From contig CAYMTY010000003.1 in assembly GCA_964393515.1 (NCBI GenBank), forward strand, positions 42,002 to 106,001: DNA of 64,000 bases, in the 5' to 3' direction. The DNA is from an uncultured Verrucomicrobiota bacterium (GTDB lineage Bacteria; Verrucomicrobiota; Kiritimatiellia; CAIQIC01; Lenti-01). A program made the position numbers and the translations under genes. The notes under the pieces were generated by a model. That model saw only the letters and a program-made list of their open reading frames with translations, was not told where the DNA came from and did not search any database. Position 1 is the first letter of the stretch. Every line of letters begins with the position of its first letter. Of this stretch, positions 28,941 to 64,000 are shown one piece after another.

Positions 28941-28981
28941 TTTTCCACACGGTGGAAAAATATTTTCCACGGTGTGGAAAA
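28941..28981. repeat. Two tandem 19-bp palindromes TTTTCCAC-N3-GTGGAAAA (same family as the 51224-51378 array)
   Basis: Seen directly between convergent gene ends; followed by a CTCCGC flank as in the larger array. Confidence 0.55.
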
Positions 28982-51223: not shown

Positions 51224-51378
51224 TTTTCCATGCTGTGGAAAAAAGTTTTCCATGGCGTGGAAAAATCCCGGAAAAGTTTTCCATGGCGCGGAAAAAACAG
51301 CCCTGTTTTTCCACACTGTGGAAAATATTTTTCCATGGCGTGGAAAAACCGCAAAAAAGTTTTCCATACTGTGGAAAA
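51224..51378. repeat. Array of six 19-bp imperfect palindromes TTTTCCAY-N3-GYGGAAAA with irregular 3-12 nt spacers (not CRISPR)
   Basis: Seen directly: units at ~51224, 51246, 51277, 51307, 51329, 51360. Each unit is two inverted TTTTCCACA-like 9-mers; the array is followed by CTCCGC. Confidence 0.6.
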
Positions 51379-51665
51379 CTCCGCTTTCCCGCCCGCCGTC
51401 CGCAGGACGTGGATGCCGGGGGTTTCTTTTGGATATTGACGGCGTCCCGCGTAAAAATAACCTGCGGATTTTTCGGAGATGCCGCTTCGCGGACGACCCG
51501 AGCAGGACTCCCGTCCGCGAGCGGTCGGCCTCAAAGCGGCAGAACGAAAAAGACGCGGGTTGGTTTTTACGCCCGACAAAATCCGAAAGAAATCCCCGCC
51601 CCTTCCCCCTCCGCTCCACCCCGCACTCCAGCCAACGCCGCCACCCCGCCGCCGCCTGACCCGCC

Positions 51666-53420
51666 ATGCTCCACCTCCTCCCAGCCCCCGCGTCCCTGCA
51701 GCTGCGCGACGGAACCCTGACTCTCCCGGCGCCGCCGACGGCCTGCGTCCCCGACCACCTCGACCCGCGCGTGGGCAAGGTCCTGCACGAGCTCTTCCCC
51801 GGGCTCCACCACATCGCCTGTCGCCAGCAGCGCGCCGCCCTCCGCCTCGAAACCGCGCCCGGCGCCCCCGAGGCCTACCGGCTGCGCATCACGCCGGTAT
51901 GCCTGGAAATCACCGCTGCCGGTGCCGCGGGCTTCTTCTACGCCCTGCAAACCCTCCGCCAGATCCTTCCGCAGAGCGGAGGCGCCTTGCCCTGCCTGGA
52001 GATCGAAGACGCCCCGGTCTTCCCCCTGCGCGGCTATTCCCTCGACGTCAGCCGCGGGCGCGTCCCGCGCCCGGAAATGCTCCAGCGCCGCATCCGCCTG
52101 CTGGCCAGCCTCAAAATCAACCACCTCCAGCTCTATTTCGAGCACCCCTTCCGCTTCCGCTTCGATCCGGACATCGCCGGCGCGGACGACGCCTACGACG
52201 CCGACGACCTGCAGGCGCTGGACACCTTTTGCCGCGAGCATTTCATCGAACTCGTCCCTTCCTTCACCTGCTTCGGCCACCTCGGCCGCATTCTTTCGCT
52301 TCCCCAGTACCGCGAGCTGGCCGAGGTCGAATTCCCGGCGCCTTCGTGGGCGGCCGCCACCTGGCGCCAGCGCCTGCACGGCGCGACCCTCAACTCCCGC
52401 GACCCCGACGCCCAGGAACTCCTGCGCCGGATCCTCGCCGAATTCCTCCCCTGTTTCTCCTCTTCCCGCTTCAACCTGTGCGGCGACGAAACCTACGACC
52501 TGGGCCGGCGCATGCCCAACGCCGCGCCCGCCGACCGCGCCCGCCAGTACACCGACCACATCCGCTTCCTGCAGAAGGAAGCCGCGCGCCACGGCAAGTC
52601 CCTCATGCTCTGGGGCGACATGCTCCTCCACCACCCCGACGCAATCTCCGCCCTGCCCGAAGGCTGCGAAATCCTCGACTGGGCCTACTTCCCTTCCAAC
52701 AAATTCGAAAAATGCGGCGAGTTCATCACGCGCGGCCTGGCCACCATCGTCTGTCCCTCCGTCCGCGGCTTCGGCCGGGTTTTCCCGGCGGTCGAAGAGG
52801 CCCGCACCGTCATCGCCGCCTACGCCCGCACCGGCCGGCGCCTCGGCGCGCGCGGCCTGCTGAACACTGACTGGGGCGACTACGGCCACTTCAACCTGCC
52901 CCCCGGCGCGCTCCACGGCCTCGCCCTCGGTGCACACCTCGCCTGGAATCCCGCCCACGACGAAACGGAAGCCTTCGACGCCGCCTTCTCGAAAATCCTT
53001 TTCGGCGCGGAGGACTTCCGCCCGGCCGGCCTCTTCCTGCGCGCCGGCTCCGTCCCGGAAAACCTCGCCGCCTGGCCCTTCCCGCCGCTCAAGGACCTCC
53101 CGCTGCCCGCCGACCCCGGCCCCGCACGCCATGTCGCCGAACAGGCCCCGCTCTGGGCCGAGGGCTTTGCCAACCTCAAACCCACCGCCTGGGCCGACGA
53201 AACCGATCTCGCCCAGCTCGCCCTCGCCTGCCGCTTCCTCCAGTTCAACGCCCTGGTCGCTTCCGGCGCCCCCGCCGGAAAAACCCGCCCGTTGCTCGAC
53301 GACCTCGAAAAGGCCTATACCCCGCTCTGGTTCGCCGAAAGCCTCCCCCGCGGCCTGCTGGACATCCATTCCCGCGGCTTCGAACCCATGCGGGCACTTT
53401 TGGATAAAGGCGTCACTTAA
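51666..53420 (+). CDS. GH20 beta-N-acetylhexosaminidase (cytoplasmic; no signal peptide). Its last codons are supplied by the inserted islet
   Basis: LEIEDAPVFPLRGYSLDVSRG (GH20 catalytic-domain start); catalytic region NLCGDETY (HxGGDE-like). Confidence 0.75.
   Translation: MLHLLPAPASLQLRDGTLTLPAPPTACVPDHLDPRVGKVLHELFPGLHHIACRQQRAALRLETAPGAPEAYRLRITPVCLEITAAGAAGFFYALQTLRQILPQSGGALPCLEIEDAPVFPLRGYSLDVSRGRVPRPEMLQRRIRLLASLKINHLQLYFEHPFRFRFDPDIAGADDAYDADDLQALDTFCREHFIELVPSFTCFGHLGRILSLPQYRELAEVEFPAPSWAAATWRQRLHGATLNSRDPDAQELLRRILAEFLPCFSSSRFNLCGDETYDLGRRMPNAAPADRARQYTDHIRFLQKEAARHGKSLMLWGDMLLHHPDAISALPEGCEILDWAYFPSNKFEKCGEFITRGLATIVCPSVRGFGRVFPAVEEARTVIAAYARTGRRLGARGLLNTDWGDYGHFNLPPGALHGLALGAHLAWNPAHDETEAFDAAFSKILFGAEDFRPAGLFLRAGSVPENLAAWPFPPLKDLPLPADPGPARHVAEQAPLWAEGFANLKPTAWADETDLAQLALACRFLQFNALVASGAPAGKTRPLLDDLEKAYTPLWFAESLPRGLLDIHSRGFEPMRALLDKGVT
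53281..53392. repeat. 112-bp direct repeat, left copy (3' end of the GH20 gene); identical copy at 56675-56786
   Basis: Exact 112-bp identity seen directly (AAACCCGCCCGTTGCTCGACGACCTCGAAAAGGCCTATACCCC...CGAACCCATGCG). Confidence 0.85.
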
Positions 53421-53558
53421 ATCCCCCCCCCCGCTATCCGGCCCGCACGGAGGCGGGCCCTCCATAAACCTGTTTTCGCATTTCACACTCTGGAGGGATG
53501 ACCTCCGTGTCGTCCGTCCCGGCCGGGCTCCTGCTGGCGCGGCAGACAGCCTTCGCCA

Positions 53559-55124
53559 TCACGGCCCGACACGGACGCGGTAATGCCCCATGGCGTTCGT
53601 GTCCGGAGGAAGCGCCAGAAATGCCGGTTTCGCCGTGGGCGGCAGGTTGGTGAATACCACTTCCCAGCTCGTGCCCGTGGCCGTCAAATCCACGCACCGT
53701 TCCAGATATTGCGTGGCCCGGCTGCCTCCCATCCAATTCACCCGGAATTGGTCGTTGGAAGCATCCACCCCCAGCATCGCCAGCCGCGAATCGGACTGCG
53801 TTGGATCGGTATCCGCCCGGACTTCCGCGCCGTCCGGCATGCCGTCCCCGTCGGAATCCGCCGCTGGATTCAGATATTCATAGGCACCCATGTCCATGAT
53901 GGCCACGCCATCGGCATTGCCGTCCAGCGGTCTCGGCACTCCGGCCAAATCGGCGCCCGGCGCCAGATCGGCATTGCTCCCCGCATCGATGCACGGGGAG
54001 TTCGACTGCAACCGGTAATCCCCAGCCACAAAATTGGTTCCGGACCAGTTGCCGGGATCGATGAATACCGGATCGTTCGTAATATTGCCCGCCCCATTCG
54101 TCGGCATCGGCACGGTACAGCAATTTATGAATATTCCATTGGAATAGTTATTTCCCCAATTCATGTAGACGATGCTGTTTAGCTGCGTACTGCAGGATGT
54201 GCCTCCGGCTCCCCACCGACCACTCTGGTTTCCAACAACCGTACAGTTGTTTAAAATGCATCTGTCCGCCCCTAATTGGTTGTTTACAACAATGCAATTG
54301 TTCAGTGTCGCTACACATCCCCCACTTCCCCAATTATTTACCAGTATGCAATTGTTTAGCTCAGATTGAGCCCCGCCAGCACAAAACACACCCCCACGGC
54401 CGTGGTTGTATGAGAATACACAGTTATTAATTACGGAATGTATAACAGTCCCAGAACCCAGATTTGTGTTGAAAAGAAAAAAGCAGTTGAAACACATACC
54501 CGATCGGACGGCACTACCAGTATAGCCAATATTATTCGTAAAAGTACAATCGATCATGGTCCCTCCGAAAGCAGCACCACCACGCCATGCTGCATTGCAT
54601 GAGAAGATGCAATTGGATACGATTACATTTGTGCCCTGACACCAGATTCCGCCACCATTCTCTTCTGTACCATTATTATCATTAACGGACGTTGAACCCT
54701 GGGCCAGCGTGAATCCAACAAGTGAAGCCCCATTTGTCAACCATACGCATCTCACTGAGTTGGGCCCCAAATTAAATACATATACTGTTGGATAATTTGT
54801 ACCCATAATCATGGTCGAATCCGGCCCATTCACCGACCGCAACGTAAGCGGCTTGTCGATCACGACCCGATTCGTAAGTGTGAAAACACCACCCGCCGGA
54901 CGTCCGCCCTTATCATAAATGCCGTTGGTGACCCAAACGGTATCGCCGGCGGCGGCGGCATCGATGGCGGCTTGGATGGTCTGCTTGGCGTTGGCCCACG
55001 AAGTGCCCGCGCCGGCATCGCTGCCCGAAGGCGAAACAAAGAACTCCGCCGCCCAAAGGTCAACCGCCGCCGCCAGCATGATTATCCAACCGATGGCATA
55101 ATAATGATTTCGGTTCCGGCTCAT
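53559..55124 (-). CDS. Secreted right-handed parallel beta-helix repeat protein (adhesin/lyase-like fold)
   Basis: Signal peptide; FVSPSGSDAGAGTSW...AAAGDTVWV N-terminal motif; many NN[CV] beta-helix rungs; Asp-rich calcium-binding-like segment; lower GC. Confidence 0.55.
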   Translation of the reverse strand: MSRNRNHYYAIGWIIMLAAAVDLWAAEFFVSPSGSDAGAGTSWANAKQTIQAAIDAAAAGDTVWVTNGIYDKGGRPAGGVFTLTNRVVIDKPLTLRSVNGPDSTMIMGTNYPTVYVFNLGPNSVRCVWLTNGASLVGFTLAQGSTSVNDNNGTEENGGGIWCQGTNVIVSNCIFSCNAAWRGGAAFGGTMIDCTFTNNIGYTGSAVRSGMCFNCFFLFNTNLGSGTVIHSVINNCVFSYNHGRGGVFCAGGAQSELNNCILVNNWGSGGCVATLNNCIVVNNQLGADRCILNNCTVVGNQSGRWGAGGTSCSTQLNSIVYMNWGNNYSNGIFINCCTVPMPTNGAGNITNDPVFIDPGNWSGTNFVAGDYRLQSNSPCIDAGSNADLAPGADLAGVPRPLDGNADGVAIMDMGAYEYLNPAADSDGDGMPDGAEVRADTDPTQSDSRLAMLGVDASNDQFRVNWMGGSRATQYLERCVDLTATGTSWEVVFTNLPPTAKPAFLALPPDTNAMGHYRVRVGP

Positions 55125-55158
55125 GCGCTTCCTCCAAAGAAATGCCCCACCAGTCTAT

Positions 55159-55992
55159 TCATTCGGCCATAAGAATTCCAACGAAAGTTGCCGAGATCGC
55201 GCGGCAAACCTCGGCAAACTCGATATCCTTGGCATAATCGAAATCCCGGCGATAGGTCTTCCAGCGCCCGGCCATGACCGCGCTGGCTTCGATTGCCCGC
55301 ATGATTTCCTTGTGCTGTTTCAGCAACTGAAACGTGCCGCGGCGCCTGGCGGTCGCCGGCAACGCCTTCCGCAGGACTTCCCAATCGATTTTCCAGGCAT
55401 ACAAGCGCCGCAACAAATGAACGTCGTAGAAGTCCCGCATCCGCGTGTTCAGATCGCCCCGCGCCAAGATGGTTTCCAGTTTCTCCGCCAGGATGGTTTC
55501 CAGGTTGTAGGCCAACACCCGGATGGCGCGCGATCCGGGCCGGACCGGATAATCGAACGGCATTTCGCGCGGCGTGATCTTGTCGCCCGTCGTGAGGTCT
55601 ACCTTCAAGGGCACCGCCATGGGCGGGCATTTCGCCTCCAGCGACAGCCGCAGACCGCCGTATTCGTCGCCTTGCCGGATCTCTTCGAGGCCCTTCACGG
55701 CGAACGAGACTCCGTCGTCGATCCGCACGGCGCAGATATCCCGGAACATCCGCCGAACGCCGGCGGCGGTGACCGGCATCCGCCGGATGGTTCCGTCCAT
55801 GTCCATCGTGGTCCGCGTGTCGAGTCCCGCCAGGGCGGAAATCAGCAATCCGCCCTTGAGAACGAAGTTCCGCCGATAGTTGGACAGCGAGATGCGCTCC
55901 AGCAACCGCTCCAACATGTGGTTTTGGAGGGCCAGCTGCGCGGAAATACCCTTTTTGCGCGCCACCATTTTCATCCGGGCCTTCAACTGCAT
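55159..55992 (-). CDS. AbiEii/AbiGii-family nucleotidyltransferase toxin (type IV TA / abortive infection)
   Basis: DUF1814-like sequence (VLKGGLLISAL...DMDGT...) with an NTase-fold GS...D.D motif; immediately downstream of the AbiEi-like gene. Confidence 0.7.
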   Translation of the reverse strand: MQLKARMKMVARKKGISAQLALQNHMLERLLERISLSNYRRNFVLKGGLLISALAGLDTRTTMDMDGTIRRMPVTAAGVRRMFRDICAVRIDDGVSFAVKGLEEIRQGDEYGGLRLSLEAKCPPMAVPLKVDLTTGDKITPREMPFDYPVRPGSRAIRVLAYNLETILAEKLETILARGDLNTRMRDFYDVHLLRRLYAWKIDWEVLRKALPATARRRGTFQLLKQHKEIMRAIEASAVMAGRWKTYRRDFDYAKDIEFAEVCRAISATFVGILMAE

Positions 55993-56000
55993 CGCCGGCT

Positions 56001-56594
56001 TCACAGCAACGTCTCCAGATAGGCTCGGACCCTGCTTTCCACGTGCAGCAGTTTCGCATAACTCGAAATTCGGGGAATGTTTTTGTCGCGCCGCCGGATA
56101 TATCGCTTGAAGGCTTCGGAAACGATCTGCGCATCGGTTCCACTGCGGCCCTTCAGGATGTCGCACAACGTCCGTTCCGCGTTGTAGGCCCGCACCGCAT
56201 GGCCGGCCGGCGTTTGTACCGCCACGACACCCAAGCCGTGCAGTTCCATTTTTACCCGATTGGTTCGGACATGCTCTTTCCGCAAGGCTCCGGTGTTATA
56301 ACCCGCGGGAAAAGTCATGCGGAACCGGTCGGGCGTACGATCGGTAAGCCCATGCAGAAACAACGCGGTCTCCAACGAAAAAACGCCCCGCTTGAACCGG
56401 CTTTGGATCGTCAAGAATTCGTCTTCCAGCGCTTTCGGCAGCATATAGACTCCGCGGTTCACCCGCTCCAGACGGCCGCTCGCCGCCAGCGCAGTTAGAT
56501 TTCCGCGCAGGATACCGGCCGCCGTCACTTGAGCCGCCGTCACGGTTCCGCCATGCCGGCGTGCGATTTCCAGGATTTTTCCGCTCCGTGTCAT
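56001..56594 (-). CDS. AbiEi-family antitoxin/transcriptional regulator
   Basis: N-terminal wHTH (ILEIARRHGGTVTAAQV...GRLERVNRGVYML) typical of AbiEi; operon with AbiEii. Confidence 0.65.
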   Translation of the reverse strand: MTRSGKILEIARRHGGTVTAAQVTAAGILRGNLTALAASGRLERVNRGVYMLPKALEDEFLTIQSRFKRGVFSLETALFLHGLTDRTPDRFRMTFPAGYNTGALRKEHVRTNRVKMELHGLGVVAVQTPAGHAVRAYNAERTLCDILKGRSGTDAQIVSEAFKRYIRRRDKNIPRISSYAKLLHVESRVRAYLETLL

Positions 56595-56674
56595 TGTCCC
56601 GAGATTGACTTTCATGCATGGATAATAGATATAAGCGTGCATGAATGTCAATTCGACTTTTGCCTCCGCCGCGC

Positions 56675-56786
56675 AAACCCGCCCGTTGCTCGACGACCTC
56701 GAAAAGGCCTATACCCCGCTCTGGTTCGCCGAAAGCCTCCCCCGCGGCCTGCTGGACATCCATTCCCGCGGCTTCGAACCCATGCG
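56675..56786. repeat. 112-bp direct repeat, right copy (displaced original 3' end of the GH20 gene)
   Basis: Identical to 53281-53392. Confidence 0.85.
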
Positions 56787-56910
56787 CCAACGGCTTGCCT
56801 AAGCCGGCGTTCGGCGAATTTGCCCGCGGGCCCGCGATTGCGCTTGCAAACGCGCCGTATTGTTATACTTTTGTTAAGGCGGAATGCCGTTGGAGCCATC
56901 GGAATAATCT

Positions 56911-57960
56911 ATGAGTCGTGCATCCAACAATCCCCTGCCAGGCAAGGCCGGCGGGACCCGCCGCGAAAAAATCTGTCGTTTGTGCACGCCGGTCCTGCTG
57001 CCCCTGTGCATCCTGCTCTACATCCTGGCCGTGGCCGGCTACGCCGTCTGGTCCTACCGCGAGCACAAGACCCGGCTGCTGGCGGAAATCGATTCCGGCC
57101 TGCTCCAGGCCGCCCGCAGCCTGAAATATCTGCTCGCGCCCGACTTCCACGACCGCGCGCTCGCGCCCGATTCCATCGGCCGGGACGAAGAGCTCCGCAA
57201 TCGGAAGCTGGTGACGGATTTCGGCGTCGAATCCGGCTTCAAGTGGGTCCAAACCATCGTCGAAAAGGACGGCGCGTTTTTCTTCTCCGCCCCGTCCGTT
57301 TCGGAGGAGGAAGCCCGCGAACGGGAATCGTGGTACTTCTATCCCTACGAAGACATCCCCGCGGAATTCGTCCAGGGCTTCCAGGACAACCAACCCGTCT
57401 TTCTCGAGTTCACCGACCAGTGGGGCACGTACCGTTCCATCGCCCTGCCGCAGCATGCGCCGGGCGGGCGCCGCTACCTGGCCAGCGCCGACCGGGACAT
57501 CAGCGACATCCGCCGCCTGCTCCGCCAAAACCTGCTGCAATCCACCGCCGTCGCCGCCTATTTTCTGCTGGCCAGCCTGCCCTTCCTGCTGCTCCTGGCG
57601 CACATCTACCGCGTGCATACGGTCGACCTGAAGCGCCTCAACGCCGAACTGCAGGATCACAAGGACACGTTGGAAATCCAGATCCGCGAGCGCACCGCCG
57701 CCCTCCAGCAGGAAACCAAACGCCTGCAGACCGCCCTCGCCAATGTCCGCACCCTGAGCGGCTTGCTGCCCATCTGCGCTTCGTGCAAGAAAATCCGCGA
57801 CGACAAGGGCTACTGGAACCAGTTGGAACTCTACATCCAACAGAACTCCGACGCCCAGTTCTCGCATGGCCTGTGCCCCGAATGCTTGGCCAAACTGTAT
57901 CCCGACCTCACCCTCGAGAAGCCTTTTCCCGGCGCCGAGGATCCGCCCGCTGCTCCTTGA
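56911..57960 (+). CDS. Membrane sensor protein: TM - periplasmic Cache-like domain - TM - coiled coil - C-terminal Cys4 motif (PICASCKKIRDDKGYW...HGLCPEC)
   Basis: ORF track; two hydrophobic segments flanking a ~160-aa extracytoplasmic region; conserved cysteine-rich C-terminal tail of unknown function. Confidence 0.55.
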   Translation: MSRASNNPLPGKAGGTRREKICRLCTPVLLPLCILLYILAVAGYAVWSYREHKTRLLAEIDSGLLQAARSLKYLLAPDFHDRALAPDSIGRDEELRNRKLVTDFGVESGFKWVQTIVEKDGAFFFSAPSVSEEEARERESWYFYPYEDIPAEFVQGFQDNQPVFLEFTDQWGTYRSIALPQHAPGGRRYLASADRDISDIRRLLRQNLLQSTAVAAYFLLASLPFLLLLAHIYRVHTVDLKRLNAELQDHKDTLEIQIRERTAALQQETKRLQTALANVRTLSGLLPICASCKKIRDDKGYWNQLELYIQQNSDAQFSHGLCPECLAKLYPDLTLEKPFPGAEDPPAAP

Positions 57961-58031
57961 CCCCCCCCGCCCGGCCGCCTTGCGCGCCGGCGGCGGATCC
58001 TCTATTCTGGACCCGTTTGCCGGACCTTGCC

Positions 58032-58376
58032 ATGGAAAACCCCGTGCCAGCCGCCGCCCCGCCGCCCACCCGGGCCGAACGCCTCAACCGCGCCTTCGGA
58101 CCCGTCGTCGCCGGGCTCATCATCGACTTCGTGGATCTGGCGACCTTCGGCCCCATCGGCCTTTACCTCGGCCTGCCCATCGGCGCCTTCGCCGGCTACT
58201 GGATGGGCCGCGCCCTCGCTCTCCCGAAGAAAACCTCCCTGCTCTGCGCGCTGGCCGCCGGCATCTACTGCATGATCCCCGGCACGGAAATGCTCCCGCT
58301 CGCCACCCTCGTCGGCGCCTGCGCCCGCTATTCCGAATCCGCCCCCAAGCCGCCCGCCCCCGCCCCCAAGCCATGA
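58032..58376 (+). CDS. Small 2-TM membrane protein, proline-rich tail
   Basis: C-terminal part of a longer track ORF; start at MENPVP; hydrophobic segments VVAGLIIDFVDLATFGPIGLYLGLPIGAFAGYW and LLCALAAGIYCMIPG. Confidence 0.4.
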   Translation: MENPVPAAAPPPTRAERLNRAFGPVVAGLIIDFVDLATFGPIGLYLGLPIGAFAGYWMGRALALPKKTSLLCALAAGIYCMIPGTEMLPLATLVGACARYSESAPKPPAPAPKP

Positions 58377-60127
58377 GCCGTCCCGGCCGCCTCTTCTTCG
58401 CCGCCGTCGTGCTCGCGATCCACACCGCCGCGGCCGGCCCCGTCCGCGTCTCCTTCCTCGACACCGACGCCGCCCGCGAAGACACCCTCCGCGCCTTCGC
58501 CCGCGCCGGCTGCGACACGAACCACCTCGCCGCGCTCCGGAAAGCCATCCTCCACTACTATCGCACCCCGCTCGCCCTCGACACCTCCGCCTTCCCGCCC
58601 GCCACGGATGGCTTCCGCGAGTTCGCCTCCATCTCCGGTTTCGTCGCCGCCCTCGGCACCAACCAGCTCTCCTTCCTGGACCACGACTTCGAGTTGAACT
58701 GCTACGACACGGCCGTGCTCCTGGCCGGGCCGGAGATGGATGCGGCCGTCGATCTGGAAACGCCGGGCGCCCCCTGGCTGGCCATCCAGGTCACCACCAA
58801 CTTCACCGAATGGCTGGAACCCGTGGTCTCGCTCGGCGATGTGGCCGCCATCGCCCATCCGGCCTGGTACACGGACTTCGTGCGGGACATCGCGCAGTAC
58901 GAATTCCCGGAAAAACACCGGATCCTCAACTCCGTCTTGTACCAGTACCAGACCTTGCCGCGGGACACCTCGGCGGAAACCGTCGCGGCGGAAACGCAGG
59001 CGGCCCTGCGGAGGCATTGGCAGCGCGGCGGCGTCCGGTTCCCGGAGAAGGTCTCCCTCATCCTGCTCCACCGCGCCCGCACCGAATACCACCTGGTGGT
59101 CACCGACCACGCCGGCGTGCTGCTCCAACAGGAAAACGGCTGGCTCTACCTTGAAAAGACTGGCGGCAAGGGCCCCTTCCTCCGGATCGATGTGAAAGAC
59201 CCCGCCGACCTCGCCGCCTACTTCGCCACCATGACCTGGCCGGACTATCCCTTCAATTACCTGTCGATCAACGATGATCTTTTCCTCGACGTTCCCCTCC
59301 GGCCGCGCGCCCTGCCGCAGTTCCTGCCCGTCGCCGAACGCGCCAAGCGGGCCATCCGCCGCCGCTGCGCCGAAATCTCCCCCGCCCCGCTCGACGCCCG
59401 CGGCTATGCTGCAACCGCCGAACTCAACCTCGTCCCCGGCGTCCGGCTGGAAGACATCCGCGCCGACTACGCCCAGGGCAGCGGCAACGAACTGGAAGGC
59501 AAGTTCCGCGCCGCCCACTCCTCCTCGGCGCTCGCCGCCAACACCTTCGGCCCCTGGCGCACCAATCCGCCGGCGCTGTGTCTGCATGGCTGTCCCGGCT
59601 ACACCGCCATGCAATTCGAGAAGAAATGCCCGACCGGCCTCGGCGGCATCCCGCCCCATCTCGACCTTCTGGTGGAAAATTCCAACGTCGTCATCGGCGT
59701 CGAATCCAAGTTCCTCGAAATCCTCACCCCCAAGCAGCCGAAATTCACGAAGAGCTACCGGCTCGAGAACCTGCCCCGGATGGAGCCGTGCTGGGCCGAG
59801 CTGCTGGAATCGCTCAAAACCGGTCCGAAGCAGTACCTCGACGCCGCCCAGCTCGTCCGCCACTACCTCGGCCTCCGCAACCGGCCGGAATGCCAAGGCA
59901 AGCGCGTCATCCTCCTCTACCTCTTTTGGGAGCCCGAAAACTGGGCGGACTTCCCCGAATACCGTCAGCACCGCGCTGAAATCTCCGCATTCTACGACCG
60001 CGTCAAGGACTCGGCCGTCGAATTCACCTGGCTCCCCTACGCCGATCTCTGGCGCATGTGGGATGCCCTCGGCTTCGCCTCTGACCACGTGCGGGAACTC
60101 CGCCGACGTTACGGCCTGGCCATTTGA
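58373..60127 (+). CDS. Secreted hypothetical protein with N-terminal transglutaminase-like Cys/His region and C-terminal PD-(D/E)xK-like motif
   Basis: Signal peptide MSRPGRLFFAAVVLAIHTAAAG; ELNCYDTAVLLAG and VVTDHAGV (possible Cys/His dyad); HLDLLVENSNVVIGVESKFLE (D...ExK). ATGA overlap with the preceding gene. Confidence 0.4.
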   Translation: MSRPGRLFFAAVVLAIHTAAAGPVRVSFLDTDAAREDTLRAFARAGCDTNHLAALRKAILHYYRTPLALDTSAFPPATDGFREFASISGFVAALGTNQLSFLDHDFELNCYDTAVLLAGPEMDAAVDLETPGAPWLAIQVTTNFTEWLEPVVSLGDVAAIAHPAWYTDFVRDIAQYEFPEKHRILNSVLYQYQTLPRDTSAETVAAETQAALRRHWQRGGVRFPEKVSLILLHRARTEYHLVVTDHAGVLLQQENGWLYLEKTGGKGPFLRIDVKDPADLAAYFATMTWPDYPFNYLSINDDLFLDVPLRPRALPQFLPVAERAKRAIRRRCAEISPAPLDARGYAATAELNLVPGVRLEDIRADYAQGSGNELEGKFRAAHSSSALAANTFGPWRTNPPALCLHGCPGYTAMQFEKKCPTGLGGIPPHLDLLVENSNVVIGVESKFLEILTPKQPKFTKSYRLENLPRMEPCWAELLESLKTGPKQYLDAAQLVRHYLGLRNRPECQGKRVILLYLFWEPENWADFPEYRQHRAEISAFYDRVKDSAVEFTWLPYADLWRMWDALGFASDHVRELRRRYGLAI

Positions 60128-60601
60128 CTACGATTGTTCCGCCGGACCGTCGTCTGGAAGGTTCTCAAGGTCATCCAGATCTTTATGTCGGCCGGATGCG
60201 CGCTTGTTGCGCAACAGATGCTCGCGGGAAATCAACTGGACAGGCAGGCCGTCGATGTCCGCCGTGACCCGGGCGGCATAACATTCCGCAAAATCCACCC
60301 CATCAATCTCGGTCAGCACCTCGATCCGCATCGGCGGCAAGCCCATGCGAATGATCTTGCCCCGCTCCTGGAACAAGGCCGGCTTCAGTTGGTCGTCCTG
60401 CATGCCAAACCGGTGGAAAACATCAACCAGTTTGGCGGCATTGTCCGGCGAGATGGCCACCCAAATGTCCATGTCAGCCGTGGCGCGCGGATAGCCGTGA
60501 TACCCAACGGCATAGCCGCCGATCAACAGATACTGAACGTCAGCGTCGTTCAGCAATTTCAAGAATTCTTTGAAGTCTTCGGGCAGTGTCTGCGCGGCCA
60601 T
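60128..60601 (-). CDS. Minimal nucleotidyltransferase-fold protein (MNT-like)
   Basis: LLIGGYAVGYHGYPRATADMDIWV fits the NTase hG[GS]x9-13Dh[DE]h motif. Start at MAAQTLPEDF; the track ORF has a longer N-terminus. Confidence 0.5.
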   Translation of the reverse strand: MAAQTLPEDFKEFLKLLNDADVQYLLIGGYAVGYHGYPRATADMDIWVAISPDNAAKLVDVFHRFGMQDDQLKPALFQERGKIIRMGLPPMRIEVLTEIDGVDFAECYAARVTADIDGLPVQLISREHLLRNKRASGRHKDLDDLENLPDDGPAEQS

Positions 60602-60787
60602 AGGCCACCTGTCGGTCCATTTGCACTGCGCGTAAACGCGCGCTCGTCGGCTGCCGTCGCCAGTACCCTTTGTCCGGGGTTTTGGCATGCAGATCGACAA
60701 CCGATAGTCTGATGCGATCCACTTTCACGGCTTTTATTCTACCCGTTGGCCACAGGAACAACAACCCGCAATTTGAATTCCCTTCGC

Positions 60788-62764
60788 CTACCAGCCGCGC
60801 CAGTGCGGCGACGGCGCAAAGCCGCCGGCCTGGTCCACCTGCAGCAGGTCGGGGTCGATCTCGTCGATGAACCGCGACGGCAGGCAGATCTGGAGCCCGC
60901 CGTCGCGCGACTTGCGCATCCGCGGCACGCACAGCCATAAATAGTCCTTCGCGCGCGTCACGGCGACGTAGAACAGGCGGCGCTCCTCGGCCGCGTCGGC
61001 CGCCTCCTCCAGCGAACGCGCCGCCGGAAACATCCCGTCCGCCAGCCACAGCACGAACACGGCCTGCCACTCGAGCCCCTTGGCCTGGTGCACCGTTGTC
61101 AGCCGGATCGCCTGGCCCGGCTGCCCTTTGGCGCGGTTCTGCTCGGCCTCGAGGTTCGTCAGCAGGGCCATCTCGCTCAGGAATTCGGCCGTGCCCTTGT
61201 ACTTGGCCGAAAACGCCATCAGTTCCTCGATGTCCTCCAGCCGCGACCGGGCGTTGTCGAACGTCTCCTCGGCGTACTCCCCGTAAAACGCCTCCGTGAA
61301 GCGGAAGATCAGCTCGTCGGGGCGGTCGAGCACGCGCCCGTCCTCCTCGCCCGCCGGGAACAGCTTCTGCGCGATGGCCGCCCACAACGGGCGGGCCTCC
61401 GCGGGCAGGCCCTCCGCCAGTTTGGCGCGCTTGGCGGCGTCGCGCAGGTTCCAATGCGCGCCGAGCGCGTGCCAGAGCGCCTGCGCCTTCTTCGGGCCCA
61501 CCTGCGGGAACAGCTCCGCCAGCCGCGCGAACGCCAGGGCGTCGGCGGGATTCGCCACCAGCCGCGGCAGCGTGCACACGTCCTTGATGTGCGCCTGTTC
61601 GAAGAAGCGCACGCCGCTCATCAGCACGTAGTCCAGCCGCGCCCGCGCGAGCTCCAGCTGCAGCTCCATCGAATGGTAGTGCGAGCGGTAGAGCACCGCG
61701 ATCTGCCCCGGCGGCACCGCGCCCGACTCGAGCAGCTGCCGGACCTTGGCCACCACGTAGCGCGCCTGGTGGCCGCCGTCCGTCATCTTCGCCAGCACCG
61801 GCTTCACCTCCGCCGCGCGCGTGGCCCGCAGCACCTTCTGGTACTGCTCGGGGTTGCCCGCGATGACCTGGTTGGCCACCGCCAGGATGCCGGGCGTGCT
61901 GCGGTAGTTCTCCTCCAGTTTGAAGACCTGCGCGCCCGGATAGCGCTGCTCGAACGACAGGATGTGCTGCACCTCCGCCCCGCGCCACGAGTAGATGCTC
62001 TGGAAGTCGTCCCCGACGGCCAGCAGGTTGCGGTGCCGCGCCGCCAGCAGGTCCACGAAGTCCGCCTGCAGCCGGTTCGTGTCCTGGTACTCGTCCACCA
62101 GCACGTGCTGCATCCGCTCCTGGTAGCGCGCCCGGACGTCCGGCTGCTCCTGCAGCAGCTTCAGACCGTTCACCAGCAGGTCGTCGAAATCCATCGCGTT
62201 CTGGGCGCGCTTGCGCTTCTCGTAGAGCGCCTGGACCTTGAGGACGCCGTCCAGATCCACGGTGTGCCCCTCGAAATGCTCCTGCACGGTCTCCTCCACG
62301 GGCGCGCCGCGGTTCGCCGCCAGCCCGAACACCGCTGCCAGCACGCCCGGCTTCGGGAATTTCTTGTCCTTGAGGCCCAGCTCCGCCACGCAGGCCTTCA
62401 GCAGGCGCTGGGTGTCGTCCTCGTCGAGGATCGTGTAGTCCGCGCCGTAGCCGAGCAGGGCGGCATGCCGCCGCAGCATCCGGTTGGCCGCGTGGTGGAA
62501 GGTGCCGCCCCACAGCCCGCCGACGTCGCCGCCGACCAGCTGCGCCGCGCGCGCGAGCATCTCGCCGGCGGCGCGGTTCGTGAAGGTCAGCAGCAGGATC
62601 CGCCGGGGGTCCACCCCGCGCTCCAGCACCAGCCACGCCACGCGATGCGTCAGCGTGCGCGTCTTGCCCGTCCCCGCCGCGGCGATCACCAGCACCGGGC
62701 CGTCCGGCGCCGTCACGGCGCGCAGCTGCGCCGCATTGAGGTGCTGGGCGGGATCGAACGCCAT
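60788..62764 (-). CDS. uvrD: UvrD/PcrA/Rep-family ATP-dependent DNA helicase
   Basis: Walker A AAAGTGKTRTL; helicase motifs II (VLVDEYQDTN) through VI (VAVTRAK). Confidence 0.9.
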   Translation of the reverse strand: MAFDPAQHLNAAQLRAVTAPDGPVLVIAAAGTGKTRTLTHRVAWLVLERGVDPRRILLLTFTNRAAGEMLARAAQLVGGDVGGLWGGTFHHAANRMLRRHAALLGYGADYTILDEDDTQRLLKACVAELGLKDKKFPKPGVLAAVFGLAANRGAPVEETVQEHFEGHTVDLDGVLKVQALYEKRKRAQNAMDFDDLLVNGLKLLQEQPDVRARYQERMQHVLVDEYQDTNRLQADFVDLLAARHRNLLAVGDDFQSIYSWRGAEVQHILSFEQRYPGAQVFKLEENYRSTPGILAVANQVIAGNPEQYQKVLRATRAAEVKPVLAKMTDGGHQARYVVAKVRQLLESGAVPPGQIAVLYRSHYHSMELQLELARARLDYVLMSGVRFFEQAHIKDVCTLPRLVANPADALAFARLAELFPQVGPKKAQALWHALGAHWNLRDAAKRAKLAEGLPAEARPLWAAIAQKLFPAGEEDGRVLDRPDELIFRFTEAFYGEYAEETFDNARSRLEDIEELMAFSAKYKGTAEFLSEMALLTNLEAEQNRAKGQPGQAIRLTTVHQAKGLEWQAVFVLWLADGMFPAARSLEEAADAAEERRLFYVAVTRAKDYLWLCVPRMRKSRDGGLQICLPSRFIDEIDPDLLQVDQAGGFAPSPHWRGW

Positions 62765-62769
62765 GGCGG

Positions 62770-64000
62770 TTACGCCGACCGGCCGGCCGCCGCCGCCACC
62801 ATGTCCGCCAGCGTCTGGTCCCCGAATCCCGCGCCGAGCCCCGACTCCAGCTTGGCCAAGGCTTCCTTGAGCGGGAGGTCCACCGTGAGCGCGCGCTCCA
62901 GTTCGGCGTGGCCGCCCCCCTCCCGCAGCAGCTCCGCCACCACGTCCTGGAGGCGGACCGTGTCCGGCGCGCGCATCAGCACGTAGCCGCCGTCGCGCCC
63001 GGCGACGGGCGCGAGATAGCCCTTGCGCGCCAGCAGCGCCACCAGCGTATTGACCAGGCGAATCGGCGCCCGGCTCCGGCGCGCGAAGTCCGCGGCGGTG
63101 AACAGCGGCTGCCCGCCGGCCATCGCCCGCCCCGCCTGGCGCAGGATCATCAGCGCCACGAGGATGCGCGCCCGCGCGCTGGCCGAGTCCGCCGCGCTCT
63201 CCAGCTGAAAGGTGTCCGAGTTCTGCAGCGCGAACGTGAACTCCGCCCCCAGCAGCAGGATCACCCAGGTCACGTACATCCACAGCATGAACACCGGCAC
63301 CGCCGCGAAGGCCCCGTAGATCTTGTTGTAGTTCGTCACCCCCGCCTGCATCACCGTGAACATCAGCATCCAGCCCAGGAACACGATGGTCGTCAGCAGG
63401 CTGCTGGTCAGGGCCGGGCGCAGCCGCACCCGCGTGTTGGGCACAAAGATGTACAGGAACCCGATCGCCAGCCACATGATCCCGAACGCCGCCAGGTTCT
63501 GCGCCCAGACGTTGATGTCGATGTCGAAATACGGGATCCGGCTGATCGCGATCTGGGCCTTCAGGGCGCCGGCCAGGCCGATCAGCACCGGCACCAGCAC
63601 CAGTACGCTCGTGTAGTTCGTGATCTGGCGCAGCAGGCTCCGGTTCTTGTCCACGCCCCAGACCCGGTTGAAGCTCTTCTCGATGTTCGCCAGCAGCAGC
63701 ACCGCCGTCAGCACGAAGAACGCCAGGCCGATCCCGCCCAGCGCCGCGAAGTTCGTCGTGTCCACGATGTCCAGCACCTTCAGGACAAAGGCCTGCCACT
63801 GCTCCGGCATCTCCAGGAACCAGTCCATCTGCGAAACCGCGGCCAGCTGGTCCTGCCCCAGCCCGAAGCCCTTGATCAGCGCGAAGCCCACCGCCAGGAT
63901 CGGCACCAGCGAGGCCAGCGTCACGAACGTCAGCGAAGAGGCGTGGATCGTCAGGTCGTCGTCCACGTAGCCGCGGATGAGCAGATGCCCCACCCGGATA
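62770..64000 (-). CDS. yihY: YihY/BrkB-family inner-membrane protein; N-terminus probably runs off the window end
   Basis: 6 TM helices with the YihY signature; the N-terminal region is shorter than typical, so the start likely lies beyond 64000. Confidence 0.75.
   Translation of the reverse strand, partial: IRVGHLLIRGYVDDDLTIHASSLTFVTLASLVPILAVGFALIKGFGLGQDQLAAVSQMDWFLEMPEQWQAFVLKVLDIVDTTNFAALGGIGLAFFVLTAVLLLANIEKSFNRVWGVDKNRSLLRQITNYTSVLVLVPVLIGLAGALKAQIAISRIPYFDIDINVWAQNLAAFGIMWLAIGFLYIFVPNTRVRLRPALTSSLLTTIVFLGWMLMFTVMQAGVTNYNKIYGAFAAVPVFMLWMYVTWVILLLGAEFTFALQNSDTFQLESAADSASARARILVALMILRQAGRAMAGGQPLFTAADFARRSRAPIRLVNTLVALLARKGYLAPVAGRDGGYVLMRAPDTVRLQDVVAELLREGGGHAELERALTVDLPLKEALAKLESGLGAGFGDQTLADMVAAAAGRSA

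Follow-up and report, generated by a model that had tools for sequence, protein, structure and literature searches.

An AbiE-carrying islet without a recombinase, flanked by a 112-bp direct repeat, at a recurrently occupied GH20 gene end in Kiritimatiellia

The conjugative element SLP1 of Streptomyces coelicolor (17 kb) carries its own integrase and excisionase, and its attP and attB sites are said to share ~112 bp overlapping a tRNA-Tyr gene. A different kind of event, 'insertion with long target duplication', goes back to Nobusato et al. (2000, Gene 259:99), as cited in Furuta, Abe and Kobayashi (2010, NAR; PMC2853133), and the tables of the latter article list direct repeats of 45-420 bp. 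Cis-mobilizable elements (CIMEs) are by definition elements that have lost their integration genes and kept attL and attR (PMC5704250). For the core defence hotspots (cDHSs) of Pseudomonas aeruginosa, which conserved genes flank, transfer through homologous recombination in the flanks has been proposed (PMC10250203). AbiE is a type IV toxin-antitoxin and abortive-infection system (Dy et al. 2014; PMC3985639), with inverted repeats at its promoter (PMC7319586).

The stretch of DNA analysed here (64 kb, hereafter the window) stems from an uncultured member of the Kiritimatiellia and harbours a GH20 glycoside hydrolase gene, whose product matches Glyco_hydro_20b (E=3.6e-16) and Glyco_hydro_20 (E=3.3e-10) in Pfam and whose orthologues in Kiritimatiellia MAGs show 72-82% amino-acid identity. 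A repeat search of the window yielded a 125-nt direct repeat (53268-53392 and 56662-56786, 97% identity, spacing 3,394 nt). Pairwise alignment delimited an exact core of 112 nt, the 13-nt left extension being interrupted by mismatches at 56665 and 56672-56674 only. As the window has no other long near-exact direct repeat besides the RHS-repeat and REP-like families, chance is ruled out as the cause. GH20 reads in frame through the left copy into a replacement C-terminus, and the right copy reads ...FEPMRQRLA with a stop at 56802; in the empty-site allele described below, GH20 encodes 580 residues and has the C-terminus QRLA. The accessory islet spans positions 53393-56674 (3,282 bp; 3,394 bp when one copy of the repeat is counted in); it is real and was recently gained or lost. 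Its features are collected in Table 1.

Table 1. Features of the GH20 locus and its islet (window coordinates).
Feature	Position	Strand	Remarks
GH20 glycoside hydrolase gene, occupied allele	51666..53420	+	584 aa; ends ...FEPMRALLDKGVT, then stop
Resident (B) arm, adjoins repeat on its left	53268..53280	+	encodes ...AGK; same in empty-site L054; AEK in L077
Left copy, exact 112-nt direct repeat	53281..53392	+	GH20 codons TRPLLDD...FEPMR; reads on to ...FEPMRALLDKGVT
Islet-borne replacement GH20 C-terminal tail	53393..53420	+	ALLDKGVT + stop codon; missing from empty sites L054 and L077
Imperfect inverted repeat between convergent GH20 and beta-helix genes	53439..53516	.	arms 53439-53464 / 53491-53516, 26 nt, 73% complementary
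Beta-helix/TSP3 protein	53559..55124	-	521 aa; 'choice-of-anchor Q' type, bacterial TSP3 repeat (Pfam)
AbiEii nucleotidyltransferase toxin	55159..56004	-	281 aa; GTG start overlaps abiEi stop by 4 nt
AbiEi antitoxin and transcriptional regulator	56001..56594	-	197 aa; Pfam, PADLOC
Predicted abiE promoter in 15-nt inverted repeat	56604..56652	-	-35 TTGACA, 18-nt spacer, -10 TATTAT
P arm, left edge of GH20 3' fragment	56656..56674	+	foreign GH20 allele ...AAQ; alignment of both copies with relatives' GH20 ends
Right copy, exact 112-nt direct repeat	56675..56786	+	independent contigs L089 and L090 read across
Displaced native GH20 tail	56787..56802	+	QRLA + stop codon; same as GH20 end in empty sites L054 and L077
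Conserved downstream gene 'down349'	56911..57960	+	no Pfam family; directly after GH20 in empty site

Pfam and PADLOC analyses identified three genes in the islet, namely a compact abiEi-abiEii operon and a compositionally foreign beta-helix gene (GC 0.54 and GC3 0.59, versus GC3 of 0.88-0.96 in core genes). The latter codes for a protein that matches TSP3_bac (E=4e-6) and Beta_helix (E=2e-4, below the curated cut-off) and is probably secreted, judging by eye from an N-terminal hydrophobic segment; its closest non-identical relatives, some of them named choice-of-anchor Q, are 660-910 residues long and 38-44% identical to it. The inverted repeat that separates this gene from GH20 is possibly a bidirectional terminator. 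AbiEii was detected both by Pfam (PF08843, E=8e-36) and by PADLOC (E=7e-94), and the limits of its gene are identical in the gene call of the Logan contig L051. AbiEi, which is likewise 197 residues long in relatives, corresponds to AbiEi_4 (Pfam, E=8e-13) and AbiEi (PADLOC, E=1.3e-67). The predicted abiE promoter has a scan score of 11/12, and the inverted repeat around it (arms 56604-56618 and 56638-56652, 93% complementary) is likely the AbiEi operator. Homology with the AbiE loci of three relatives (L058, L059 and L060) stops at 56651-56652, the point at which the conserved AbiE cassette ends on the right. By analogy with its family, this type IV toxin-antitoxin/abortive-infection module would serve in defence and addiction here.

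The first-pass annotation, made from the letters of the window, had predicted that relatives without the islet would have a GH20 gene ending in QRLA, directly followed by the sequence from 56787 onwards. Such an empty site is present in the public contig L054, in which window positions 51309-53392 are joined to 56675-64000, with 2,084 nt of upstream and 7.2 kb of downstream sequence 100% identical; the repeat occurs once, the arm is AGK, and GH20 ends in QRLA with the downstream gene straight after. The sister lineage L077 (~88% nucleotide identity) shows the same empty arrangement and the same tail. Neither of these relatives carries both copies, the finding that would have pointed to a segmental duplication, and their empty sites indicate instead a real, recent insertion/deletion polymorphism. 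Thus, strains identical in the flanks exist with and without the islet. The islet contig L052 and the empty L054 come from the same sample, i.e. from a mixed population. Two findings argue for a recent event: the repeat copies match each other at 112/112 positions, whereas L077 differs from the window at 6/112 positions of the same stretch, and the islet contigs of several samples agree with the window at 100% identity. Taken alone, the difference between L054 and the window is compatible with insertion and with repeat-mediated deletion alike.

The junctions were reproduced in independent assemblies. The Logan unitig L051, found in 5 samples, equals window positions 53363-56704 and so comprises the islet and, at either end, exactly 30 nt (k-1) of the adjoining repeat copy. 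The contigs L089 (Logan) and L090 (ENA, SPAdes) extend from abiEi across the right repeat to the downstream gene with 100% identity. Much of the first-pass annotation was borne out: the exact 112-bp repeat, by repeat search and pairwise alignment; the junctions; the left copy continuous with GH20 into a new C-terminus; an insertion into the GH20 3' end without disruption of the gene, whose native end, as found in L054 and L077, is borne by the right copy; and the low-GC beta-helix protein and AbiEi/AbiEii pair, on which Pfam, PADLOC and GC3 agree.

The GH20 3' end is a clade-wide insertion hotspot in this Kiritimatiellia lineage. It has received at least four unrelated cargoes, each followed by a leftover GH20 3' fragment whose length differs: AbiE (followed in L059 by a decayed remnant), a DUF4300 gene (remnants of 50 nt in L004/L070, 23 nt in L006 and 17 nt in L001), a five-gene lipid cluster (95 nt at 87% identity in L078, 13 contigs) and a CoA-transferase-like gene (~150 nt in L088). 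The duplicated length varies by event (about 23, 50, 95, 125-135 and 150 nt), and the left boundaries differ. The right boundary is common to all, just past the Arg codon of FEPMR, and it coincides with the point at which the GH20 tails of all orthologues naturally diverge, so that a fixed crossover site is not needed. In addition, the remnants do not match the neighbouring GH20. In the window, the remnant has AAQ, the allele of most relatives, versus AGK in the resident gene, and the mismatches at 56672-56674 are exactly this allelic alternative (GCG CAA vs GGA AAA); in L059, the remnant has AGQ..IHS and the resident GH20 AAQ..IHA. These mismatches indicate that the fragment arrived with the cargo. 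Tails similar to ALLDKGVT occur naturally in the GH20 of other lineages (RLLDG, NLLDSE and KLLET, each followed by a stop), and we rejected accidental read-through as the origin of ALLDKGVT on that account. The nucleotide identity of abiEii is 90% with L058, 85% with L059 and 77% with L060, while core genes are uniformly at ~81-82%; AbiE thus moves between lineages and yet keeps to the GH20-end locus.

As the first-pass annotation had noted, the islet encodes no integrase, nor does it encode any other recombinase. Neither the islet, nor the window ORFs tested, nor the same interval of ~30 related loci yielded a tyrosine or serine recombinase or a transposase. Genome coverage in this search was the 64-kb window; its ORFs scanned with Pfam are housekeeping, RHS and regulatory genes only, and five window ORFs have no family assignment. 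Inspection of the junction alignments revealed no conserved inverted-repeat core or arm-type motif, and no related element was found in viral contigs.

Our best reading, held with moderate confidence, is that homologous recombination of the Campbell type brings the islet in and that a crossover between the repeats removes it. It would travel embedded in GH20 3'-end homology, with a GH20-type tail on one side and, on the other, a GH20 fragment that opens with a foreign allele, the feature that argues for cargo moving together with GH20 homology. Entry would occur by RecA-type recombination with the resident GH20 end, either through a single, Campbell-type crossover of a fragment that had become circular, or through a double crossover in the flanking core genes with DNA from a conspecific donor already harbouring the repeat-flanked islet. 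Recombination between the two 112-nt repeats would then regenerate exactly the observed empty site. The 112/112 identity beside a foreign-allele arm requires a conspecific donor or gene conversion. Homologous recombination alone does not account for the founding duplication, which may go back to an 'insertion with long target duplication' in some donor lineage.

The first-pass annotation had instead proposed a site-specifically integrated element. In such a scenario, the islet would be a decayed or non-autonomous, CIME-like element with the repeats as attL and attR. The integrase inserting and excising it at the GH20 3' end would come from another part of the genome or from a visiting element, and the islet would bring the 3' end that restores the gene. 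The direct repeats at a gene 3' end, the restored reading frame, the clean empty site and the repeated use of the same gene end all fit, as do element-side arms unlike the host-side arms, expected of attP-derived sequence, and the missing integration genes that define CIMEs. We nevertheless consider it unlikely, because no integrase was found in the occupied loci examined (four cargo types) or the window ORFs tested, because duplicated lengths range from ~23 to ~150 nt with differing left boundaries, and in view of the negative results for junction motifs and viral contigs. A dedicated recombinase acting in trans, with its site within the conserved ...GGCTTCGARCCSATGMG stretch, could also explain the at least five events at one gene end. 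Nor is a repeat of 112 bp unusually long, as had been suggested, since it falls within the range reported for recombinase-less long target duplications (PMC2853133).

It is quite improbable that a fresh 'insertion with long target duplication' in this very lineage gave rise to the islet; in such an event, a selfish gene unit without mobile-element genes would have duplicated tens to hundreds of bp of its target, possibly via double-strand-break repair. As in the definition of Furuta et al., the insert is shorter than 20 kb and devoid of mobility genes, and the direct repeat exceeds 30 bp and is single-copy in the empty-site genome (PMC2853133); the cargo, an addictive toxin-antitoxin module, can be likened to restriction-modification units, and the lengths of the duplication differ among events. 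However, the left edge of the right copy (56656-56674) is foreign, with AAQ versus AGK in L054 and AEK in L077, and the new tail is also GH20-type, which indicates that the duplicated DNA is not simply the local target. Moreover, the AbiE-fragment junction and its counterpart in L059 seem to have a common origin, which would place the founding event elsewhere and earlier. Finally, an assembly artefact, in which a 3.4-kb circular or strain-variant sequence with 112 nt in common with GH20 was threaded into the chromosome contig, is very hard to credit: a repeat-sharing circle and an integrated islet would give the same de Bruijn graph unitigs (L051 ends 30 nt inside each copy) and one sample has both empty and islet sequences, but the islet has no replication gene, L089 and L090 independently join abiEi, repeat, native tail and downstream gene, in L059, GH20, AbiE and a remnant follow one another on a single contig whose repeat copies have diverged too far to be confused in assembly, and this architecture recurs with other cargo in L078 and L004.

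Like SLP1, the islet displays a long identity (~112 bp) at the 3' end of its target gene; SLP1, however, carries an integrase and excisionase, whereas the islet has no recombinase. CIMEs and decayed integrative elements at gene 3' ends similarly lack integration and transfer genes and restore the gene 3' end (PMC5704250), but no integrase-bearing relative was found at the GH20 site in any lineage examined, repeat lengths vary by event with no evident att core, and the islet, at 3.3 kb, is far below typical ICE or IME remnants. The hotspot shares with the P. aeruginosa cDHSs a variable content between conserved core genes, here GH20 and down349/UvrD, and many occupied sites without a mobility gene (PMC10250203). 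The contents of this interval across relatives include AbiE, REase-ARP/DUF4300, HNH and an AAA-DUF4143 ATPase. In contrast with cDHSs, the scar is a duplicated GH20 3' fragment, not expected from simple flank-to-flank replacement, and non-defence cargo is accepted too, such as the lipid cluster of L078. The AbiE pair does not differ at the sequence level from described ones, as it is a two-gene operon with overlapping genes and promoter inverted repeats (PMC3985639, PMC7319586) and comprises a winged-helix AbiEi and a DUF1814 nucleotidyltransferase, AbiEii (PMC3985639). Of the systems compared, the islet comes closest to 'insertion with long target duplication', which likewise involves a small selfish or addictive gene unit without integrase or transposase, long direct repeats of variable length that are single-copy in a same-species empty-site genome, some targets that overlap gene 3' ends, and inserts whose GC content is unlike that of the host (PMC2853133). 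The islet differs from it by carrying an AbiE pair and a beta-helix gene rather than a restriction-modification system, by the reuse of one gene end by at least four unrelated cargoes, and by one repeat edge and a new tail that stem from a foreign allele of the target gene, which suggests that the unit was imported with target homology rather than that the local target was duplicated. We thus regard it as a further case of a known, recombinase-less kind of insertion and not as a new kind of mobile element.

A repeat search of the window returned a 125-nt direct repeat at 97% identity (53268-53392 and 56662-56786, 3394 nt apart) and, apart from RHS-repeat and REP-like families, no other long near-exact direct repeat. 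In pairwise alignment, the rightmost 112 positions are identical between the two copies (112/112), and the 13-nt left extension carries four mismatches, at 56665 and 56672-56674. These results confirm the first-pass annotation, which had reported an exact 112-bp repeat at the 3' end of a GH20 gene with an islet between its copies. The left copy forms the final conserved codons of the gene and continues into ...FEPMRALLDKGVT and a stop codon; the right copy translates as ...FEPMRQRLA followed by a stop codon. The displaced GH20 end is recorded as a 'hypothetical protein', P0248. Like the corresponding remnants that are recorded as proteins for other lineages, P0249 (49 aa) and P0247 (66 aa), it is a pseudogene fragment of the GH20 end and not a gene, which serves as a lesson for annotation. 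The other repeat families of the window stem from very large RHS-repeat protein genes (Table).

Features of the window and of related loci
Feature	Locus	Position	Strand	Remarks
GH20 hydrolase gene	window	51666-53420		Pfam Glyco_hydro_20b and Glyco_hydro_20
Repeat, left copy	window	53281-53392
Beta-helix/TSP3 protein	window	53559-55124	-	521 aa
AbiEii	window	55159-56004	-	PF08843 E=8e-36, profile positions 1-229 of 238; PADLOC AbiEii E=7e-94
AbiEi	window	56001-56594	-	PF13338 E=8e-13; PF09407 E=5.5e-4, just under the curated cut-off; full-length PADLOC AbiEi model E=1.3e-67
Displaced GH20 end (P0248)	window	56641-56802		53 aa
Repeat, right copy	window	56675-56786
DUF4300-like/REase-ARP fusion	window	58373-60127		584 aa
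157-aa protein	window	60128-60601	-	Aminoglyc_resit E=3e-4
RHS-repeat protein genes	window	1837-8624	-	RHS_repeat E=9e-132
REP-like clusters	window	51224-51378; 28941-28981
tRNA-Cys	window	18736
Y1 transposase-like ORF	L002	11877-12809	-	310 aa; partial IS200-like domain, E=9e-6
Lipid-type cluster	L078	1924-5774		CDP-alcohol phosphatidyltransferase, CTP transferase, acyltransferase, amidohydrolase, one unknown gene
GH20 remnant	L004/L070			50 nt at 94%; reads ...PRGLLDIHTRGFEPMRILLAG, stop
GH20 remnant	L006			23 nt
GH20 remnant	L001			~17 nt
GH20 remnant	L059			AGQTRPLLD/IHSRGFEPIRTLL, stop; internal deletion of ~75 nt
GH20 remnant	L078			95 nt at 87%, 44-nt exact block; IEKAYAPLW...FEPMRQRLR, stop
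GH20 remnant	L088			about Q..ALVASGAPAAQ to ...FEPMRNLL, stop; adjoins CoA-transferase-like gene (identified by eye)

Three minus-strand genes lie between the repeat copies. Two of them show the two-gene operon layout of AbiE, with the antitoxin gene first on the same strand and a 4-nt overlap. According to Pfam and PADLOC, AbiEi harbours an N-terminal winged-helix domain and the AbiEi C-terminal domain, and AbiEii is a DUF1814 nucleotidyltransferase, in whose translation a GG...RTTMDMD motif was seen by eye. The operon is preceded by a near-consensus promoter (TTGACA, 18-nt spacer, TATTAT), the -35 box of which is overlapped by a 15-nt inverted repeat. The latter is consistent with autoregulation by AbiEi, as known for AbiE systems (PMC7319586). 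AbiE is a type IV toxin-antitoxin and abortive-infection module (PMC3985639), and the predicted activity would favour retention of the islet. The GC content of the islet is 57%, compared with 68% for the window, and GC3 values are 0.59 for the beta-helix gene, 0.81 for AbiEii and 0.68 for AbiEi, against 0.88-0.96 for the neighbouring core genes. For the beta-helix protein, a donor search yielded only 100%-identical islet copies, and otherwise relatives at no more than 44% identity. It is far shorter than these relatives (660-910 aa), and its gene is split in composition (GC3 of 0.53 over the first 375 codons and 0.73 over the last 147); the protein may be chimeric or truncated. At this gene, the NCBI annotation apparently calls only a 182-aa product (P0251).

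Using exact-protein look-ups, we retrieved public contigs of the same strain. One of them, L054 (Logan, SRR34875127, 10.6 kb), matches window positions 51309-53392 at 100%, contains a single repeat copy and continues at 100% with positions 56787-64000. Its GH20 protein (580 aa) has the AGK motif of the resident gene just before the repeat and ends in QRLA, and the conserved gene for a 349-aa protein (down349) follows directly. Both repeat copies of the window are identical to this single copy at 112 of 112 positions. A sister lineage (L077, ~88% nucleotide identity in GH20) is also empty, with an AEK motif at the same place and an identical QRLA tail; its repeat region differs from that of the window at 6 of 112 positions. 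These two contigs show that the empty QRLA state is native to this lineage, and they provide the site foreseen in the first-pass annotation, in which GH20 ending in QRLA runs straight into the sequence from 56787 onwards. The proposed insertion into the GH20 end thus stands, as a clean two-allele polymorphism with a single repeat copy in the empty sites. Segmental duplication is excluded by those same single copies. Given the 6 differences in L077 and the identity of the window copies, the latter must have arisen, or been homogenised, after the split from that lineage.

The occupied allele was also recovered independently. Since L054 and an islet-bearing contig, L052, come from one sample, the population is mixed for the islet. 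Both alleles occur in the samples SRR34875121, SRR34875123, SRR34875127, SRR11845629, SRR8925744, SRR8925725 and ERZ4240422. Another contig, found in five samples (L051), corresponds to positions 53363-56704, the islet with k-1 = 30 nt of either repeat copy attached, which is the exact length expected of a k=31 unitig that stops at a repeat. Two further contigs, L089 (Logan) and L090 (an ENA SPAdes contig), are 100% identical to the window across AbiEi, the repeat, the QRLA tail and the downstream gene. In L090, which carries the islet and comes from another sample (ERZ4240422), 66 nt are missing from the intergenic region that precedes down349 (window 56816-56885); the deletion is bounded by two GAAT microrepeats, and the contig is otherwise 100% identical to the window.

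The sequences that border the repeat bear on the origin of the duplicated fragment. On its left edge (56656-56674), the right copy reads ...GCC GCG CAA (AAQ), the common allele of other lineages, as opposed to GCC GGA AAA (AGK) in the resident GH20 gene and L054. This edge and the new tail of the resident gene (53393-53420) are both GH20-like and foreign to this lineage. Similarly, the remnant of L059, a related AbiE-bearing locus, differs from the adjacent GH20 gene (AGQ...IHS and AAQ...IHA, respectively). From these alleles, the GH20 fragment appears to travel with the cargo. This foreign edge led us to reject, for the window, homology-facilitated illegitimate recombination, which would duplicate recipient sequence. 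No GH20 allele ending in ALLDKGVT, the putative donor, came up in a search, which did return P0247 and P0249 as further remnant ORFs. The right end of the AbiE cassette is conserved and sharp, falling at 56652 (...GTGCATGAATGTCAAT), the outer arm of the 15-nt inverted repeat. Both in the window and in L059, the GH20 fragment begins 4-26 nt past this end, and the GH20 codon at which it starts is almost the same, a pattern that suggests a single founding junction between AbiE and the fragment, which may have spread later. Such spread between lineages would fit the nucleotide identities to the window, namely 90% (L058) and 85% (L059) for AbiEii and 74-75% for AbiEi, compared with a uniform ~81-82% for core genes. 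On these values, we reject strictly vertical descent of AbiE at this locus. Compared with L058, L059 and L060, the operon is a mosaic: relative to L058, AbiEii is at 90%, AbiEi at 75% and the core at ~82%, which suggests recombination within it between lineages.

We searched related loci for partial GH20 ends with a motif, a peptide and a nucleotide-level profile built on the 3' end of GH20. Second, partial ends were found past the cargo in five settings besides the window (remnants in the Table). The left boundaries of the remnants vary from event to event, and the right boundary is always 0-2 nt past the Arg codon of FEPMR. This Arg is also the point after which the C-terminal tails of all GH20 orthologues diverge (QRLG, KLLG, RLLDG, NLLDSE, KKLQE and others); any two alleles therefore lose similarity there, and the common boundary does not call for a fixed crossover site. 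Crossover points within identical repeats are invisible to sequence comparison. In the window, L078, L059 and L004, both tails look like natural GH20 tails. We saw by eye no motif common to the cargo-remnant junctions of the five events, and a metagenome scan with the GH20 C-terminus gave seven loci, none of them nearer to the window than those already known.

The GH20 orthologues at 72-82% amino acid identity all belong to Kiritimatiellia/Verrucomicrobiota MAGs, mostly from bioreactors and digesters as judged from record titles. These relatives keep GH20 and the downstream p114, down349 and UvrD genes, and the interval after GH20 varies. It is empty in L005. AbiE operons convergent with GH20 occur in L060/L011, L059 and L058 (AbiEii at 75-89% amino acid identity); their stop codons overlap with those of GH20 in L060, and an HNH gene intervenes in L058. 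A DUF4300-like gene is present in L001, L003, L004/L070 and L006, accompanied in L001 by an AAA/DUF4143 ATPase. In L078 (13 contigs), a five-gene lipid-type cluster (GC 56-61% versus 69% for GH20) precedes the GH20 remnant, so the hotspot is not limited to defence genes. The interval between GH20 and down349/UvrD thus has the conserved flanks and variable, defence-enriched content of a core-gene-flanked defence hotspot. DUF4300-like and REase-ARP are fused into one gene in the window, L010 and L013, and elsewhere are separate genes in either order or occur singly (L058, L078, L001, L004 and L007 compared). The gene for the small membrane protein p114 shifts position relative to down349, the entire GH20-UvrD interval being rearranged between lineages. 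Between the REase-ARP gene and UvrD, the window encodes a 157-aa protein with weak nucleotidyltransferase similarity, a 42-aa fragment of which adjoins the GH20 remnant in L059.

The rest of the window is housekeeping DNA (SAM synthetase, DAHP synthase, HPr kinase, thiamine genes, RHS proteins, response regulators). None of the window ORFs tested matched an integrase, resolvase or transposase family, five of them having no family assignment, and no integrase or recombinase was found in the islet or in the GH20-downstream intervals of related loci. The view of the islet as a site-specifically integrated element is accordingly not supported. There is no tRNA near the site, the single tRNA of the window being a distant tRNA-Cys, and no Rfam match between 50 and 61 kb. 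Scans of IMG/VR found no match to AbiEii, nor to a degenerate pattern representing the repeat/new-tail junction. The islet is neither a prophage nor an ICE remnant. A REP-like 19-nt palindromic element (TTTTCCAYNNYRTGGAAAA) is clustered upstream of GH20 (six copies) and in another intergenic region (two copies), with 16 strand-matches versus 0 expected, and its motif recurs in translated intergenic ORFs of L004, L005 and L015. The interval after GH20 in L002 contains an ORF with a partial Y1 transposase domain, which could be a REP-associated tyrosine transposase linked to these palindromes.

We consider it probable that the islet is bracketed by GH20 homology, exchanged by homologous recombination and lost through the 112-nt repeats. 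It might enter by a Campbell-type single crossover of a circle P-R-P', with R the repeat, P the foreign AAQ arm and P' the ALLDKGVT side, a circle that would arise through recombination between the flanking repeats. Alternatively, a conspecific donor already carrying the repeat-flanked islet could provide it by a double crossover within core genes of the flanks. If the repeats recombined with each other, the islet would be lost and exactly the L054 arrangement restored. The identity of the two copies points to a conspecific immediate donor, or to gene conversion. An integrase acting in trans, as for CIMEs (PMC5704250), would account for direct repeats at both islet ends that are single-copy in L054 and L077, but no integrase was found in related elements at the intervals examined, making this a rather unlikely possibility. 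For the window, a fresh local event of 'insertion with long target duplication' (PMC2853133) is improbable, as the foreign-allele edges speak against it; as a founding event elsewhere, such an insertion is plausible. An assembly artefact is hardly credible, being contradicted by L089, L090, L059, L078 and L004 and by the lack of a replication gene in the islet.

Beyond homologous exchange of this islet, a broader and doubtful proposal is that, in Kiritimatiellia, a family of 'homology-handle' cassettes lacking a recombinase uses the GH20 3' end as its dedicated landing pad. Unrelated cargoes with a short GH20 3' fragment would circularise between flanking repeats and re-insert into the GH20 gene of new hosts, even across ~18% species divergence. 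If true, this would represent a general mode of gene mobility dependent on RecA or on an unknown trans-acting factor, and it could account for the long-unexplained 'insertion with long target duplication'.

To specialists, a single islet of this sort is nothing unusual. Recurrent duplication of the GH20 end with several cargoes, together with the two-allele natural population, makes the mechanism directly testable. At least four unrelated cargoes have each left a duplicated fragment of one gene end, with no recombinase nearby. The polymorphism is a clean natural example of a defence/addiction module gained or lost between strains otherwise identical over >9 kb, in an uncultured phylum without genetics and with both alleles in the same samples. 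The locus thus lends itself well to testing how selfish gene units insert with long target duplications, a question that has stood since 2000.

The islet belongs to a kind already known, that of accessory islets which lack a recombinase, have long repeats of the target gene and occupy a hotspot. The length of its repeat has a precedent in SLP1, an integrase system with a 112-bp att identity. The locus resembles core defence hotspots (PMC10250203), but GH20-end insertions leave a scar. The nearest described case is the 'insertion with long target duplication' of Kobayashi (Nobusato et al. 2000, as cited in PMC2853133), in which restriction-modification units lacking mobility genes sit between direct repeats of 45-420 bp, the repeat being present once in genomes with an empty site. 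As in those cases, the islet is smaller than 20 kb (3,282 bp), is devoid of mobility genes and has an exact repeat longer than 30 bp (112 nt). Unlike them, it carries an AbiE toxin-antitoxin pair and a beta-helix protein rather than restriction-modification genes, one gene end is reused by several cargoes, and the edges of the repeat are foreign, the duplicated sequence not coming from the local target.
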